A program made the translations under genes and the position numbers. Positions 2,118 through 34,185 of a stretch of DNA of 64,000 nucleotides are shown one piece after another. The stretch's first letter is position 1; each line of letters opens with the position of its first letter. Below the pieces are notes generated by a model. The model was not told the DNA's origin. It worked only from the letters and a program-made list of their open reading frames with translations, and searched no databases. The DNA is from a virus (Duplodnaviria > Heunggongvirae > Uroviricota > Caudoviricetes), in IMG/VR virus record IMGVR_UViG_2728369393_000007; one strand, written 5' to 3'.

Positions 2118-2495
2118 ATGGAGACTGTTTTTGACGCACTGAAAGCGATGGGAAAAGCCACGTCGGTAGAGCTGGCTGCGCGACTTGATATCAGTCGTGA
2201 AGAAGTACTGAACGAGCTGTGGGAACTGAAAAAGGCTGGCTTCGTTGATAAAAGCGTATACACCTGGCGTGTGGCTGATAACAACGTTCAGCAGGAACAG
2301 CCAGCGCCAGAAGAAACCACCACGGCAACGCGAGTGCGTGTAACTTTTGATGTCATTCCCGTAGAAACACCGGACAAATTTTCGCTGACAGGTCATGCAG
2401 AAGGTATAAATCTGCAGATTATGGACAATTACGGATATCCGGCAAGAGCCGGAAAAAGCATGCCGCCTCTAATTCTCAGTGGAAGATGGACTTGA
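2118..2495 (+). CDS. hypothetical phage protein (small winged-helix-like)
   Basis: GGGAGG RBS 7 nt before ATG; [43 protein letters not shown]. Confidence 0.5.
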
Positions 2496-2746
2496 TTATA
2501 CTCATTGCATTGTCAGAAATAGTTATCCATTAAAGGCTGGCTATTCCAAACAGGATGTTGATTACAAAAATGTAATCAACATGTAAGGTTTATACTCTTC
2601 AATATGCGTATAATTTTCCTTATTTTGTTGACTTTAAATAACAAGCTATGCACGAGGTAAAGTCGGATAAGTTTATCTGGATGTAATATATATTATTTGT
2701 AGTGTTTATAACTTTATTTCATGATAACCAATAAAAGGAGTTTTTT

Positions 2747-3505
2747 ATGAGGAACATAATGGCAGGTTTTTTAATATTCCTGTCTTCTGCTGCTTATGCT
2801 GATATCAATCTGTATGGTCCTGGTGGCCCGCATACAGCCTTGCTTGATGCAGCCAAACTTTATGCCGAAAAAACAGGTATTATAGTGAACGTTCATTACG
2901 GCCCACAGAACAAATGGAATGAAGATGCCAAAAAAAATGCAGATATCTTGTTTGGCGCATCAGAACAATCTGCTCTGGCTATCATTCGGGACCATAAAGA
3001 CAGCTTCAGTGAAAAAGATATTCAGCCTCTTTATCTGCGAAAAAGTATTTTACTGGTAAAGAAAGGTAATCCTAAAAATATCCGGAGTATTGACGACCTG
3101 ACCAGACCTGGGATTGGCGTAATTGTTAATGATGGTGGTGGTACCAGTAATACATCAGGCACTGGCGTCTGGGAAGATATTGCCGGACGTAAAGGGAATA
3201 TAGAAACTGTCGCCGCAATCCGAAAAAATATTATTTTATATGCGCCCAATAGCGGAACTGCACGTAAGGCTCTTGAGAATCAGCCTGGAGCAGATGTCTG
3301 GATAACCTGGGCTGACTGGGCAGCCAGTAATCCAGAAATTGGTGATGTCGTGGAAATAGCGCCAGACTACGTGATATGGCGTGATATGAACATTACAGTA
3401 CGTCAGGATGCAAATGATGAAACCCGTCGATTTGCAGAATGGCTACAAACCGATGAAGCGGCGCCTGCATTCAAAAAATATGGCTGGACCAGGAAAGGCA
3501 CTTGA
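2747..3505 (+). CDS. secreted periplasmic substrate-binding protein (ModA/anion-binding PBP fold), orphan
   Basis: AAAGGAG RBS; signal peptide MRNIMAGFLIFLSSAAYA; PBP type-2 fold features; AT-rich codon usage unlike flanking phage genes; no linked permease/ATPase. Confidence 0.65.
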   Translation: MRNIMAGFLIFLSSAAYADINLYGPGGPHTALLDAAKLYAEKTGIIVNVHYGPQNKWNEDAKKNADILFGASEQSALAIIRDHKDSFSEKDIQPLYLRKSILLVKKGNPKNIRSIDDLTRPGIGVIVNDGGGTSNTSGTGVWEDIAGRKGNIETVAAIRKNIILYAPNSGTARKALENQPGADVWITWADWAASNPEIGDVVEIAPDYVIWRDMNITVRQDANDETRRFAEWLQTDEAAPAFKKYGWTRKGT

Positions 3506-3840
3506 CATCCTCGTCCTTCAGGACGTGGATTCTTTTTCCGGATGCCGCGCCAGCGGCATGTAGGGGCAGCTCACAAAACGGAAAAAATTGTACGCTAAGC
3601 CTCGCCAGGTGAACTGAATTCATTCCGATATGGGAATTCCCATATCGGGCGAAAACGGTTTGCTGTAACGGCAGAGTTAAGTAGGATTGCTGCGGGTGCT
3701 TGAGGCTATCTGCCTCGGGCATGAACACCAACGGCAGATAGATAAAAGCCCCACCCGACTATAAATCGAAGTGAGGCCCCTATATGCTCGTCACATATAG
3801 ATTGCCTCTTACGGACCGAAAGGTCAAGGAGAAGCAGGCT

Positions 3841-3996
3841 ATGAAGCAGCAAAAGGCGATGTTAATCGCCCTGATCGTCATCTGTTTAACCGTCATAGTG
3901 ACGGCACTGGTAACGAGGAAAGACCTCTGCGAGGTACGAATCCGAACCGGCCAGACGGAGGTCGCTGTCTTCACAGCTTACGAACCTGAGGAGTAA
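3841..3996 (+). CDS. hokD: Hok/Gef family type I toxin (HokD/RelF-like)
   Basis: 51 aa MKQQKAMLIALIVICLTVIVTALVTRKDLCEVRIRTGQTEVAVFTAYEPEE, AGGAG RBS; single TM helix. Confidence 0.8.
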   Translation: MKQQKAMLIALIVICLTVIVTALVTRKDLCEVRIRTGQTEVAVFTAYEPEE

Positions 3997-7179: not shown

Positions 7180-7255
7180 GGCCCTTTAGCTCAGTGGTGA
7201 GAGCGAGCGACTCATAATCGCCAGGTCGCTGGTTCAAATCCAGCAAGGGCCACCA
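7180..7255 (+). tRNA. ileZ: tRNA with CAU anticodon, Ile2 (lysidine)-type, phage ileZ-like
   Basis: Cloverleaf GGCCCTT/AAGGGCC acceptor, GCTC/GAGC D-stem, CTCATAA anticodon loop, TTCAAAT T-loop, encoded CCA. Confidence 0.8.
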
Positions 7256-7256
7256 A

Positions 7257-7332
7257 CCGCCACTAGCCATCAGGAAAGAGCGTCAACCCTTTAAGTTGAG
7301 TGTGCGAGGTTCGAGTCCCCGGTGGTGGTCCA
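7257..7332 (+). tRNA. tRNA-like sequence at the argN position, non-canonical
   Basis: 76 nt, good acceptor (one G-U), TTCGAGT T-loop and encoded CCA, but D-stem pairs only 2 bp and anticodon loop CCTTTAA has C33. Confidence 0.4.
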
Positions 7333-7345
7333 TTATCGGTATTCT

Positions 7346-7420
7346 GCGTTGTTAGCTCAGCAGGACAGAGCAATTGCCTTCTAAGCAATCGGTCACTGGT
7401 TCGACTCCAGTACAACGCGC
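7346..7420 (+). tRNA. argO: tRNA-Arg (UCU), phage argO-like
   Basis: GCGTTGT/ACAACGC acceptor, GCTC/GAGC D-stem, ATTGC-CTTCTAA-GCAAT anticodon arm, TTCGACT T-loop. Confidence 0.75.
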
Positions 7421-8189: not shown

Positions 8190-8390
8190 TTTTTTTGTTT
8201 GCTGTTTATTAAAAACACTTCTGCATGGTGAATCCCCCTGTGCGGTGGGGCAATCAGCAAGAAGGAATATGGGGTAATCGCGGATTCAGGTGCTGATACT
8301 GAATTCACCGGGAGGCACCCGGCACCATGCTTTGCCACAAAAGTGTTATTTCTGTTTTTCTCAAACTATCATCGTTATCCCTTTATTTTC

Positions 8391-29899: not shown

Positions 29900-30129
29900 A
29901 GGGCGTCTTTATGTAACTGAATTTTTCTGTGGAGATGCTGTCTGAAAATATTTGATTAAAAACGGAAGCTAAGTTAAATAGTAAGTTTATTTTTTGAGCT
30001 TAGGTGTATGTGTTTAGAATTTTTCTGGTGTGTTTGTTTTGTGGGGGATTTTAGGAAAAATATATTAATCCTTATTAATAATAGCCGTCATCCATTTCAG
30101 CTATTATTTTAAAATAAACAAGTTAAAGC

Positions 30130-31452
30130 TTAGACTCTTGTTTCTTGGATTATATCAACGGTATCAACATAATTTGATGGGTTATGATGTGGTGAGTTAT
30201 TGCTTTCGATATTGATGACCACATCCTCTGGATTTGGATGCCGTTGTCCAACAGATACACCTTCTTCCATTGCGCGTATATCAGCCCCTGTGGCATGTTC
30301 AATATCTGCTTTATTTGGGAAAATGGCACCTTCTCTTGCATGCCACCATATACGAGGATAGTCAGTGAATCTGGCCTCTCCAAACTCGGCCTTGTTTAAA
30401 TCAGCCAGTCCAAGAGTAGTACCTGCCCACCATAAAATAGTGTCTGGCTTTAATCCGGGGGTATTATACTGTATGGCATGCCCCGCTGCTTGCCCAACCA
30501 TTGCACCGATATGAGGACTTAACATTGGATCTGTACCAGTAAATCTGGATACTGCAAATCCCCCTACAGCACCAAGCGCATTTGCGGCAGCATTGGTAAG
30601 AACGGCATATTTAGTATTAGGGTTATCTAAATCCCACTTGAAATGTGCGCCAAACTCCAGCCCTAGAGTTGCCTGTAGTGGAGATGCACCATATTTAAAA
30701 TCTGCTTCTCCCGGTCTGATCACCCACTCTTCAGTATAATTTGCTTTGGGGCCATCAGGAGTAAGAGGAGTTTCTCCAACAAGCTTCCATCCATTTTCAG
30801 TTTTGACTATAGGAAGTTCCACACCATGATTACGAACTACTTGAGCTGTTAATCCAAACCATGGTATTGGGTCTTTTGACGCGGTGGTTACCGTCGAAGT
30901 AGTGGCTGATGCAATAGTGGATGCAGCAGTCGATACAGTGGTTGGTATATTGCTGTTGCTTAATGCATTTTTTAATGGACCAGGAAGGTCTTTAAAATTA
31001 ATACCTATTTCATCATGCAAAGGGAATATCTGTAAAAAATAATTACCTGATGTAGGATGAATATCTGGTTTTACAATGTTTAGCTGGACACCATATTTAC
31101 CAGAGATACCCGGAACGGTGCTGGGTATTTCTAATGCCATCTGAGAGACATTGAATAAACCAAACATATCCAATGCTTTTTTTCCTGCAGAGCCTTCTTC
31201 AAGATGAGGTGCAAGATATTTATCCAGCCCAGAGAGCAGACCTTCATCTTTTATCAAGCTCAGTAGAGCTGTTGTTTCACCGCATTCCGGTGCATGTCGC
31301 TGCATATCCTCTGGGATATGAACAACAAATCCCGTTTCGCATCCATTAGGTAATTCGGATTGCGGTATTTGTGTAGGGGACGTTTGTTCTGCGTGATGAT
31401 GTCGATTGTTTTGTGTGGTGATTCCGGATGTTACGATCGGTTGAATGTTCAT
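30130..31452 (-). CDS. nleA: type III secreted effector NleA/EspI
   Basis: 440 aa MNIQPIVTSGITTQNN… with C-terminal PDZ-binding ETRV. Confidence 0.9.
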   Translation of the reverse strand: MNIQPIVTSGITTQNNRHHHAEQTSPTQIPQSELPNGCETGFVVHIPEDMQRHAPECGETTALLSLIKDEGLLSGLDKYLAPHLEEGSAGKKALDMFGLFNVSQMALEIPSTVPGISGKYGVQLNIVKPDIHPTSGNYFLQIFPLHDEIGINFKDLPGPLKNALSNSNIPTTVSTAASTIASATTSTVTTASKDPIPWFGLTAQVVRNHGVELPIVKTENGWKLVGETPLTPDGPKANYTEEWVIRPGEADFKYGASPLQATLGLEFGAHFKWDLDNPNTKYAVLTNAAANALGAVGGFAVSRFTGTDPMLSPHIGAMVGQAAGHAIQYNTPGLKPDTILWWAGTTLGLADLNKAEFGEARFTDYPRIWWHAREGAIFPNKADIEHATGADIRAMEEGVSVGQRHPNPEDVVINIESNNSPHHNPSNYVDTVDIIQETRV

Positions 31453-31835
31453 GATAAATCCTTATTGCATGTTTATATCCATTAATAATATCAATCCATT
31501 GATATTATTAGTGTCACATATCCGATGTGGACAGCTTTAATATATAGCTGTTTGAATGCTTGATTGATGTGACTTAGATCTCAAAATTAAGTTGTTAAAT
31601 TTACCAGTTTATCGCTTGAACACTTAAAATAAATTATAAATCCTTCTGTTATTGTTTTTATAATTCAAATTATTGTTGGTTGTATAACTTGATTACATCT
31701 TTACTCTAAGTGTTATAAATATTTTATACTGATATTAGTTTTATTATATATATTCTTAATGAAAATGAGCATAAAACTAAGACATATAATGCTTGGCAGC
31801 TTTATGCTCTTCTGATTGGCTGTATGTTTGATGAC

Positions 31836-32040
31836 AAAAAATTAGCGCAAGAAGAAAAAATCACCTTGCGCTAATGCTCTGTCTCAGGTCACTAATCACA
31901 CCTAACTCATTGATTAATTGTGACTCTAAATGTAGTGTTTTGTCGCGTTTTGCAGTATGTTATTTAATCTATTATATGAATAACATAATGATTTTTAATG
32001 TATTTTTGTAATTTACTCTCCTTCTGACATGGAAGTTGTT
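31836..32040 (+). repeat. junction repeat R2, copy a
   Basis: TGATGACAAAAAATTAGCGCAAGAAG…GCGCTAATGCTCTG…AGGTCACTAAT recurs at 35503-35700. Confidence 0.5.
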
Positions 32041-32107
32041 CGTTCAAAATCTTATTAAATATCAAGTTGTTAAATCTGGTAAGTCATTATTGGTCAAAAT
32101 AAAATCA

Positions 32108-33094
32108 TTATCCGATTTCAATTTTGTCCCACTCCCGCTCGCGACTGTCCCTATAATGCGCCGCCATTGAATCAGATTTATGTCCAAGAAGACGTTGTGC
32201 AAACTTGTAGCCAATCTGGTTCCGATATAGCCTCGCGGACAGACTACGTAGTTCATGAAATGTCGGTGGGTCTCCATCAAACGAGATCCCGGATGCATTT
32301 CGCGCCTTTGTTAAATACCGTGATACTGTGGCTGGAGAAAGTGGTTCGTGATAGGTTGATGCGATTATTGTTTCACTGCTGCTGGCCTCCCTGCATTTCT
32401 GTAGTGTATCAACCAGTGAGATGTCGAGTGCGTCAATGGTTAGAGCCAGCGGAATGGCAATTTTGGCTCCTGTTTTACTCTGTCCAATGTGAAGATGACC
32501 ATCGTTTATGTCTGACCACTTCATTCTGCACAAATCGCCCACTCTCTGCCCTGTAACGACAGCTAAATCCATTGACAGCCTCAGCCAGATGGGGAGGTGC
32601 TCAGCAGCATGGTAAATAGCGACATACTCATTAGCTGTCAGCCTTGAGCGCCTTACTTCTGACTTTGCTGCACGGGTTGTTGTTACTGGATTCGTTGCCA
32701 CATGCCCCTCGGCTATTGCCCCTCGAAAAACGTCAACAAGGGTTGACCTGATTACTCTTGCGGAAACCGCTTTACCTTCTGCGACGTAGGTGTTTAGCAT
32801 TGCTGCCACCTCTTTCGTTGATATGTCAGTGAGCGGTTTGTCCGGCAATTTTCTTCGAATTGCCCTGATTTTGCTGGCGTAGTCGAGTAATGTTTTCGGC
32901 TTGCTCCCCCTCTAGCTGAGGATTGTTTCATATCGATCAAGCCACGTATGAAGAGTGATTGAGTCAGTGCCTTTAACCCTGTCCAGCAATGATTCGTGCC
33001 CACTTTCGCTGAAAAGCTCAATGTTGGTGTGAATGCTTCTGAAATTGCTACTCTTCTGTCTCTTCCCAGCCCGAACTCTTTTTTCGTCCTCGGG
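32108..33094 (-). pseudogene. int: lambda-type tyrosine integrase, decayed
   Basis: C-terminal catalytic half intact (…HELRSLSARLY…LLGHKSDSMAAHYRD…); upstream part has a 1-bp frameshift and in-frame TAG (plus 32912-32914); N-terminus replaced at ~33095 by repeat R1. Confidence 0.75.
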
Positions 33095-33228
33095 TCAGTG
33101 TGTAGTAAGACCGCTGCAAATCCTGCGTGCTGACGGGAAGTGGGAAAATATTGGCGAAATGAAGTAACCCGATAGCTTCACAAAAACCGGAGTCCGGCTC
33201 CGGTTTTTGTTGTCATGTACGGGGGATG
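33095..33228 (+). repeat. junction repeat R1, copy c
   Basis: Matches 28812-28945 including terminator hairpin. Confidence 0.7.
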
Positions 33229-33273
33229 TCTGTTAGGAATAATTAGATAGGTTTATTTTGAAGGTTGAAATGT

Positions 33274-34185
33274 ATGTTATCGCCCTCTTCTATAAATTTG
33301 AGATGTTCATGGAATTCTTTAACCAGAAACCTGACTTCGCCTGATAATCGTGTTTTATCCTCTGTAAGGGATGCTGCTGTTCACTCTGATAGCGGGACGC
33401 AAGTAACGGTTGGCAACAGAACATATCGTGTTGTGGTCACTGATAATAAGTTTTGCGTTACAAGAGAAAGTTATAGTGGTTGTTTTACTAATCTGTTGCA
33501 CAGGTTGGGATGGCCTAAGGGAGAGATTAGCAGAAAAATTGAGGCTATGCTGAATACATCGCCAGTGAGCACGACTATAGAAAGAGGCTCTGTTCATTCG
33601 AACAGACCTGATTTACCTCCAGTGGATTATGCGCAGCCGGAGTTACCTCCAGCGGATTATACTCAGTCAGAGTTGCCGAGGGTTAGCAACAATAAATCAC
33701 CCGTGCCAGGTAATGTTATTGGTAAAGGTGGTAATGCTGTCGTGTATGAAGATATGGAAGATACAACAAAAGTGTTGAAGATGTTTACTATATCTCAAAG
33801 CCATGAAGAGGTGACAAGCGAAGTTCGTTGTTTCAATCAGTATTATGGTTCCGGGAGTGCAGAGAAAATATATAATGATAATGGAAATGTTATTGGTATT
33901 AGAATGAATAAAATAAATGGGGAATCTCTTTTGGATATTCCATCATTACCAGCACAAGCTGAACAGGCTATTTACGATATGTTTGACAGACTGGAGAAAA
34001 AAGGAATTCTTTTTGTTGATACAACAGAAACAAATGTTTTATATGATCGTATGAGAAATGAATTTAATCCAATAGATATATCATCTTATAATGTTTCTGA
34101 TATTTCATGGAGTGAACATCAAGTCATGCAATCTTATCACGGAGGAAAGCTGGATCTTATTAGTGTAGTATTAAGTAAGATATAA
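33274..34185 (+). CDS. nleH: type III secreted effector NleH (OspG-like kinase)
   Basis: MLSPSSINLRCSWNSLTRNLTSPDNRVLSS… kinase core, C-terminal SKI. Confidence 0.9.
   Translation: MLSPSSINLRCSWNSLTRNLTSPDNRVLSSVRDAAVHSDSGTQVTVGNRTYRVVVTDNKFCVTRESYSGCFTNLLHRLGWPKGEISRKIEAMLNTSPVSTTIERGSVHSNRPDLPPVDYAQPELPPADYTQSELPRVSNNKSPVPGNVIGKGGNAVVYEDMEDTTKVLKMFTISQSHEEVTSEVRCFNQYYGSGSAEKIYNDNGNVIGIRMNKINGESLLDIPSLPAQAEQAIYDMFDRLEKKGILFVDTTETNVLYDRMRNEFNPIDISSYNVSDISWSEHQVMQSYHGGKLDLISVVLSKI

Follow-up and report, generated by a model that had tools for sequence, protein, structure and literature searches.

The gene considered here, paa (also adfO), lies at 2747-3505 on the + strand of a 64,000-nucleotide stretch of a tailed-phage genome (Caudoviricetes; IMG/VR record IMGVR_UViG_2728369393_000007), the whole of which is referred to below as the window. 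It is an established colonisation gene of Escherichia coli, and its closest described relatives are AcfC of Vibrio cholerae (VC_0841; PDB 4jb7) and PEB3 of Campylobacter jejuni (Cj0289c; PDB 2hxw, 3fir, 3fjg, 3fjm, 3fj7). In a review of the O-islands of enterohaemorrhagic E. coli, adfO (z2053, O-island 57, OI-57) is equated with Paa and described as always accompanied by ckf (z2054). paa is used as a routine typing marker for porcine enterotoxigenic (ETEC) and enteropathogenic E. coli, and adfO as a standard PCR marker for Shiga-toxin-producing E. coli (STEC), linked to eae-positive strains associated with haemolytic uraemic syndrome. Transcription of paa was reported in strain EDL933, with induction in bovine rumen and rectal contents, and an adfO mutant was reported to adhere more weakly to HeLa cells and to secrete reduced amounts of several proteins. 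AcfC, the best-studied relative, has a role in chemotaxis and not in adhesion: it was described as periplasmic, as binding heparin, chondroitin sulfate and mucin in an enzyme-linked immunosorbent assay (ELISA), and as required for chemotaxis to mucin but not for adhesion. For PEB3, a review table gives phosphoenolpyruvate (PEP) and 3-phosphoglycerate (3-PG) as ligands.

The gene in the window is an intact copy of the canonical paa/adfO allele (z2053, OI-57 of EDL933, prophage CP-933O, 'PPompW' type), and as such is an already known, named and experimentally studied virulence-associated gene of STEC and attaching-effacing (A/E) E. coli. The coding sequence starts with ATG, is preceded by a Shine-Dalgarno sequence (AAGGAG, 2735-2740) and encodes a 252-aa product 100% identical to WP_001449026.1 ('AcfC family adhesin Paa'). 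The DNA at 2400-3600 was 100% identical to the annotated paa locus, including that of O157:H7, O26, O103, O111 and O145 genomes, and the locus was found in 623 of 5426 complete E. coli genomes (563 records at ≥99% identity). GenBank records of 'PPompW' prophages label the gene 'porcine attaching-effacing associated protein Paa / adherence factor AdfO'. Taken as a whole, the locus is very probably explained as paa within an AT-rich prophage cargo cassette of ~1.0 kb, encoding a stand-alone binding protein of the AcfC/PEB3/Paa family. The original prediction had proposed an orphan secreted substrate-binding protein carried as an AT-rich moron at 2500-3540; that interval matches the upstream region, paa and a terminator-like hairpin at 3512-3525, and 'orphan' is apt for a stand-alone exported binding-protein gene, but not in the sense of an uncharacterised one, as the gene is paa/adfO. 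The observation was correct but ordinary. What is added here is modest (a stand-alone state across the family in 80 species, the boundaries of the ~1-kb cassette, a fimbrial scar, repeated capture by phages and an upstream palindrome) and leaves the classification as a known gene unchanged. The puzzle is one of mechanism, in that a protein labelled 'adhesin' has a conserved pocket for small anions but neither an anchor nor a partner transporter.

As read from its sequence, the product is a Sec-exported protein of ~26 kDa with the two-lobed periplasmic-binding-protein (PBP) fold of the AcfC/PEB3/Paa family. The N-terminus (MRNIMAGFLIFLSSAAYA|DINLYGPGG) reads as a typical Sec signal for signal peptidase I (SPase-I), with an AXA site and without a lipobox Cys; the signal peptide comprises residues 1-18 (2747-2800, + strand), with predicted cleavage at AYA|D. 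The crystallised mature PEB3 chains (2hxw, 3fj7) start at the residue aligned with Paa D19, and the mature N-terminus D-[IV]-N-L-Y-G-P-G-G-P-H is kept across the family. The Pfam profile SBP_bac_11 (PF13531) matched Paa with E=5.5e-34 and 118.3 bits (cut-off 25), residues 20-247 covering profile positions 1-226 of 227, and a PDB search returned PEB3 (E=1.2e-81) and AcfC (E=3.5e-81) over residues 11/16-248. The signal-peptide-bearing PBP-fold protein of the original prediction, and the SBP_bac_11 search put forward as its check, are borne out by these matches (118 bits). Its alternative assignment to ModA failed: NCBIfam ModA/CysP/Sbp models gave 12-23 bits against cut-offs of 62-470, the best being a sulfate substrate-binding protein at 22.6 bits (cut-off 288), with modA TIGR01256 at 18.3 (cut-off 62.5). 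Sbp, CysP and ModA (PDB 1sbp) have the same Pfam clan, fold and anion-binding architecture as Paa, but their similarity to it is marginal (PDB E 1e-4 to 1e-3) and Paa has no linked permease or ATPase.

Twenty family members from Escherichia, Salmonella, Yersinia, Raoultella, Citrobacter, Edwardsiella, Enterobacter, Aeromonas, Francisella, Vibrio, Helicobacter and Campylobacter were aligned, and 64 columns were invariant. PEB3 and AcfC, the homologues with solved structures, are 52-59% identical family members in this alignment. Invariant motifs were GPGGPH (G24-H29 of Paa), GPQ, ADI-x-x-G-x-S-x-QSA, GNP, G-x-S-N-T-S-G-T-G-x-W-E-D, PNSG and W-x-TW-x-DW; in Paa the invariant ligand-site loop comprises S134-G140, W142, E143 and D144. 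Residues T138 and S139 of PEB3, which we take to be ligand-binding positions, align with the invariant T136 and S137 of Paa (numbering of the PDB alignment). Min and colleagues reportedly found in 2009 that a T138A/S139A double mutant of PEB3 was no longer stabilised by 3-PG or PEP. From this conservation we infer that the ligand pocket of Paa is intact. AcfC (~50-55% identical to Paa) is a full-length homologue that shares the fold, the signal peptide and the invariant motifs of the pocket, and is likewise a stand-alone gene on a horizontally acquired element, in its case the toxin-coregulated pilus (TCP) island downstream of toxT/tcpJ and not a lambdoid prophage. PEB3 is also a full-length homologue, with the same mature N-terminus. 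It is an N-glycoprotein, modified in the segment DFNVS; Paa has DSFSEK at the aligned position and therefore lacks the glycosylation sequon. Unlike paa, the PEB3 gene is chromosomal, core-like and located beside surE (and beside cdtABC in one species).

The annotation of the matching genome shows no permease or ATPase of the ATP-binding cassette (ABC) type inside the prophage, which agrees with the earlier claim that paa lacks such a partner; the nearest ABC gene is the chromosomal oppF of oppABCDF, ~12 kb off and outside the prophage. Neighbourhoods of nine homologues were sampled, and one genome per species was taken to give 80 loci with homologues 42-87% identical, in which ABC ATPases and permeases within 2 kb were sought by motif and phmmer. 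No ABC component was found at this distance in 78 of the 80 species. The two exceptions were a convergent open reading frame (ORF) 42 bp off, and a same-strand ATPase 282 bp upstream in a metagenome-assembled genome (MAG) of Thermodesulfobacteriota. None of the nine sampled contexts had an ABC component in an operon with the homologue. Vibrio acfC lies in the TCP island after toxT/tcpJ, the Campylobacter PEB3 gene lies between surE and DUF817/cdtABC, and the Francisella and Raoultella neighbourhoods held no nearby transporter. For the Edwardsiella and Enterobacter homologues a complete ABC operon was found 0.7-2 kb off, having its own binding-protein gene; in Edwardsiella an opposite-strand gene lies between the homologue and this operon, and on a second Enterobacter contig no ABC operon was present in the ~1.1 kb available upstream of the homologue. 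Standing alone is thus the norm for the AcfC/PEB3/Paa family across the 80 species, and as its members almost never lie beside ABC genes, Paa stands alone constitutively as a binding protein and is not what is left of a truncated transporter. In a distant subfamily (44-49% identity), a secreted CxGDCAVKWPP-repeat protein is encoded 48 bp downstream of the homologue in 10 loci (Vibrio, Endozoicomonas, Citrobacter, Sulfurospirillum). Other recurrent neighbours in this subfamily are extracytoplasmic function (ECF) sigma and anti-sigma-like genes, hybrid histidine kinases and LysR regulators; such neighbours hint at a pairing with signalling rather than with transport.

The boundaries of the cassette were mapped by blastn against plasmids and against related phages. 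Positions 2543-3565 (+ strand) matched an ETEC IncF plasmid (L011) at 85.9% identity, and 2553-3565 matched a second IncF plasmid (L013) at 88.7%. One plasmid copy lies beside an STa enterotoxin gene flanked by the insertion sequence IS1 (L011) and another beside repA and yacAB, and the flanks are otherwise unrelated. The mobile unit common to prophages and plasmids is therefore ~1.0 kb long, as delimited by these alignments, and consists of ~200 bp of AT-rich upstream region, paa and two 3' hairpins. On the phage side, homology to the backbone of paa-less phages ends at ~2277-2329 and resumes at 3652-3682, and in related phages without paa the slot holds ~2.9 kb of unrelated genes.

Between the left phage junction and the cassette lies the remnant of a papH-like fimbrial minor-subunit gene (2322-2547, + strand), which has lost both of its ends and contains a frameshift. 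Over 229 bp it shares 89.5% identity with a fimbrial gene of the IncF plasmid pSCU-115-1, and genes of its type belong to the chaperone-usher operons of IncF plasmids. About 12 codons at its 3' end are gone and a 5-bp deletion is present; PGAP annotates a 'fimbrial protein' pseudogene in the matching genome at the equivalent of 2319-2586. Compared with the PPompW prophages of O157, the window has a deletion of ~956 bp with a 9-bp overlap at 2321-2329. This deletion created the chimeric ORF at 2118-2495, in which the N-terminus of the phage DUF1627 protein is fused to the C-terminal part of the papH-like subunit. The described Paa/AdfO locus of STEC and A/E E. coli (WP_001449026.1; z2053 in OI-57 of EDL933) is identical in protein and DNA, and is likewise in an ompW-integrated lambdoid 'PPompW' prophage with a downstream hok-type 'ckf'; the present copy differs from it in the flank only, by the ~956-bp upstream deletion and by an IS3-family element that replaces the early-left region. 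Because the unit is shared with plasmids and is accompanied by a fimbrial-gene scar, the cassette was acquired from a plasmid or an island through illegitimate recombination.

Capture by phages was not limited to this slot. In the IMG/VR viral collection, 45 loci encode Paa homologues, mostly within the identical E. coli cassette. A homologue of 86% identity is located after tail gene L of a lambdoid prophage, and one of 67% identity, which matches Providencia alcalifaciens, lies between the integrase and the tail-fibre/baseplate genes of a P2-like prophage. An AcfC-family gene of Aeromonas is also in a P2-like prophage, between gpA and ogr/portal. Judging by these positions, the family has been captured repeatedly, in different slots and apparently independently. 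Homologues 70-73% identical to Paa, closer than those of Vibrio and Aeromonas, were also present in gut MAGs assigned to Mucispirillaceae (Deferribacterota) and Desulfovibrio (Desulfobacterota), which suggests either cross-phylum transfer among gut bacteria or binning contamination.

The composition of the cassette is deviant without being extreme. GC content in 300-bp windows over 2401-2850 was 0.33-0.34, compared with 0.50-0.59 in the upstream replication genes and flanks; it was 27% in the 200 bp before the ATG, as expected from the AT-rich upstream region described in the original prediction, 44% in paa, 41% in the cassette and 50% in the whole window. That the deviation is not extreme follows from the ~15% of 1-kb windows of the 64 kb that equal or exceed the AT-richness of the cassette. 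The lowest-GC stretch of the window is at ~30950-33900 (1-kb windows down to 33%), and it reaches at its left end into the 3' part of nleA (~30124-31446, - strand). As the immunity/PR region of the prophage is replaced by an IS3-family element, expression of paa would need a promoter of the cassette's own, which fits a moron model. A candidate -10 hexamer, TATAAT, was read at 2609-2614 (+ strand); it is the same in 3 of 4 aligned cassettes and TACAAT in the fourth. A strict two-hexamer sigma-70 scan gave no match in 2503-2746, as a good -35 element is lacking; this result weighs against promoter autonomy, which is accordingly inferred only. Downstream, a terminator-like hairpin (CGTCC-TTCA-GGACG, 3512-3525) with a T-rich tail (together 3512-3538, + strand) was found by terminator scan and folding. 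The predicted hairpin begins 7 nt past the paa stop and is conserved in the plasmid cassettes, and the RNA of 3500-3570 folds at -29.7 kcal/mol (z=-3.0). A second, G+C-rich hairpin, ATGCCGC-GCCA-GCGGCAT (3542-3559, + strand), marks the right edge of the cassette: it is kept in the IncF plasmids L011 and L013, and similarity stops after it.

With these features paa resembles the phage morons described by Juhala and Hendrix, such as bor and lom of lambda and the type III secretion system (T3SS) effector genes at prophage ends. It is likewise a single gene of deviant composition, with a predicted 3' hairpin terminator and probably a promoter of its own; other genes fill its slot in related phages, and it benefits the host and not the phage. 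The moron label of the original prediction is upheld by the junction mapping and the plasmid-shared edges, which delimit a self-contained AT-rich cargo cassette. Unlike typical morons, the paa unit is shared with plasmids and bears a fimbrial-gene scar.

At its left edge the cassette has a perfect inverted repeat of 12 bp, ATGTTGATTACA-AAAA-TGTAATCAACAT (2555-2582), a candidate operator. Its fold z-score was -3.9, and none of 200 shuffles folded equally well. It is overlapped by direct repeats with an 11-bp period, TGTAAT-N5-TGTAAG (2571-2587), and the pattern GATTACA-N4-TGTAATC matched once in the window when up to 2 mismatches were allowed (0.14 expected). The core TTACAAAAATGTAA is kept 5' of the IncF plasmid copies of paa and of the 67%-identical Providencia prophage homologue, which also has TGTAA-N6-TGTAA upstream; the remainder of the Providencia upstream region could not be aligned with the cassette. 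When the palindrome was searched for upstream of the homologues in the 80 species, it was found in Providencia alcalifaciens only and in none of the other 79, so it is a trait of mobile enterobacterial cassettes and not of the family. Comparison of the repeat block by eye with FNR, CRP, Pho-box, ArcA, CpxR and TyrR consensus sequences gave no good fit, so the block is not assigned to any of these regulators. The palindrome may be an operator or a recombination scar, and its conservation provides a handle on the regulation of paa. A bolder proposal, which we consider doubtful, is that palindrome and direct repeats together (core TTACA-AAAA-TGTAA, then TGTAA-N6-TGTAA; 2555-2587) form the portable operator of a conserved enterobacterial regulator, with Paa as a periplasmic co-sensor induced by a gut signal and not an adhesin. 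The 11-bp repeat period would suggest a response regulator of the OmpR/PhoB/ArcA type. If this were true, the same gut signal would switch paa on in a lambdoid prophage, an IncF plasmid and a P2-like Providencia prophage, and Paa would be a periplasmic co-sensor of a phospho- or sulfo-anion.

As to function, the ligand of Paa in the periplasm would most likely be a small anion carrying phosphate or sulfate, or else phosphate or sulfate groups of mucin-type glycans, given that the pocket loop G-x-S-N-T-S-G-T-G-x-W-E-D is invariant. Paa may then signal by way of a partner encoded by the host, for example a chemoreceptor or sensor, and its effect on adherence and A/E lesion formation would be largely indirect. 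The combined proposal, of action through a host-encoded partner with an indirect effect on published adherence, is held tentatively, at somewhat below an even chance. An indirect role is favoured by the precedent of AcfC and by the pleiotropic phenotype of the adfO mutant; for Paa itself, the periplasmic location, the part in mucin chemotaxis and the non-adhesin status are drawn by analogy from AcfC, for which they were shown. Several points count against this proposal. The literature name of Paa is that of an adhesin. We know of no published ligand of Paa. Anti-Paa antibodies are said to have lowered A/E lesions in the work of Batisson and colleagues of 2003, implying some surface exposure. 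Lastly, position K135 of PEB3, at which a K135E mutation reportedly affects ligand stabilisation, is Thr in Paa and Val in AcfC in the alignment; ligand specificity may therefore differ between members.

The competing view that Paa is a surface-exposed adhesin, binding host-cell or mucus glycans directly, is unlikely on balance but is the weightiest of the other accounts. Reported A/E lesion defects of paa mutants and HeLa adherence defects of adfO mutants speak for it, as do the ELISA binding of AcfC to sulfated glycans and mucin and the first description of PEB3, which was as an adhesin. Paa itself combines an ordinary SPase-I signal with a soluble PBP fold and shows no anchoring, autotransporter or fimbrial features, and pathogens share the small-molecule pocket, without variation, with free-living or marine bacteria. 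In published accounts, AcfC and PEB3 fractionate to the periplasm, deletion of acfC leaves adhesion unchanged, and the altered secretion of other proteins in the adfO mutant suggests that its adherence defect is indirect. Paa might instead be a scavenger that passes 3-PG, PEP or another anion to an unlinked chromosomal transporter, which we regard as rather improbable. The pocket residues of PEB3, listed as a binder of PEP and 3-PG, are conserved in Paa, whereas 78 of the 80 species have no cognate permease or ATPase gene within 2 kb and the phenotypes so far reported concern adherence and chemotaxis, not growth. In favour of scavenging there is the growth of C. jejuni, which Min and colleagues (2009) are said to have found boosted by 3-PG in the wild type and not in a PEB3 mutant; against it, we know of no E. 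coli transporter that accepts a ligand of Paa.

Two further accounts bear on the origin of the gene and on whom it serves, and both have very little probability. A function directed at the phage, such as receptor masking or superinfection exclusion, would suit the location of paa in a prophage cargo slot and the independent capture of homologues by lambdoid and P2-like prophages. It is strongly disfavoured because the family is found mostly on chromosomes, away from phages (Campylobacter, Helicobacter, Francisella, the Vibrio TCP island); moreover, plasmids carry the same cassette, paa is perfectly conserved although the prophage is defective, and no exclusion phenotype is known to have been described. 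The least probable account, with next to no weight, is that paa is the remnant of a truncated ABC-transporter operon, as would be suggested by its substrate-binding fold, by the ABC operons 0.7-2 kb off in Enterobacter and Edwardsiella, and by the single same-strand ATPase 282 bp upstream among the 80 species. Those Enterobacter and Edwardsiella operons own their binding-protein genes, and the edges of the cassette are conserved across unrelated plasmid and prophage settings. The adjacent cognate transporter in relatives, which the original prediction had named as the sign of simple operon truncation, was absent within 2 kb in 78 of the 80 species, and the truncation account is rejected.

The prophage setting of the original prediction was also correct. 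Over its first 12 kb the window shows no difference from E. coli strain CFSAN004176, in which a degraded lambdoid prophage is annotated as integrated at ompW. Its order begins with a partial integrase, IS600, a partial ydaT, O-like and P-like replication genes, a partial DUF1627 gene, the fimbrial pseudogene and paa; it continues with hokD, DUF968, rusA, Q, tRNAs, a SASA esterase, lysis genes and disrupted structural genes, and ends with nleA, nleH1-2, nleF, nleG and espM1. paa thus occupies a cargo slot of variable content, with the replication genes on one side and the hok/nin region on the other, and the defective prophage keeps both paa and the T3SS effector block nleA to espM1 (~30-38.4 kb). 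IS3-family elements (IS600/IS1203-like) at 1-370 and ~14900-16100 replace the immunity/early-left region and split the terminase gene.

Immediately outside the cassette is a type I toxin-antitoxin module of the hok/sok type (3694-3996, + strand), identified by Rfam (sok, 103.9 bits), PGAP and PHROG (MokW-like host killing). PGAP places hokD at 3841-3996, corresponding to 'ckf' of the OI-57 literature. This stretch belongs to the phage backbone and is common to phages without paa. The record PP818812.1 ('Actinobacillus phage vB_Apl-pPE4') is 89-94% identical in DNA to the E. coli lambdoid backbone (replication genes and hok region), and its assignment to an Actinobacillus host looks doubtful.

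Collinearity of the window with CFSAN004176 (99.9-100%) reaches ~53.2 kb and is followed by divergence; by ORF listing and blastn, no stx ORFs were present at 56.4-57.9 kb of the window, and CFSAN004176 carries Stx2a genes in the following segment. The window stems from a related but distinct strain. Three tRNA genes were predicted after Q by ARAGORN (7180-7420; CAT anticodon, TTT Lys, TCT Arg), of which Rfam and the RefSeq annotation of the matching genome give two (Ile, Arg), the Lys-like one at 7257-7332 being left unannotated. A match to the STnc100 sRNA of Rfam (8194-8366, 100.8 bits) lies just 5' of the SASA/NanS-like esterase gene (8504-10354).

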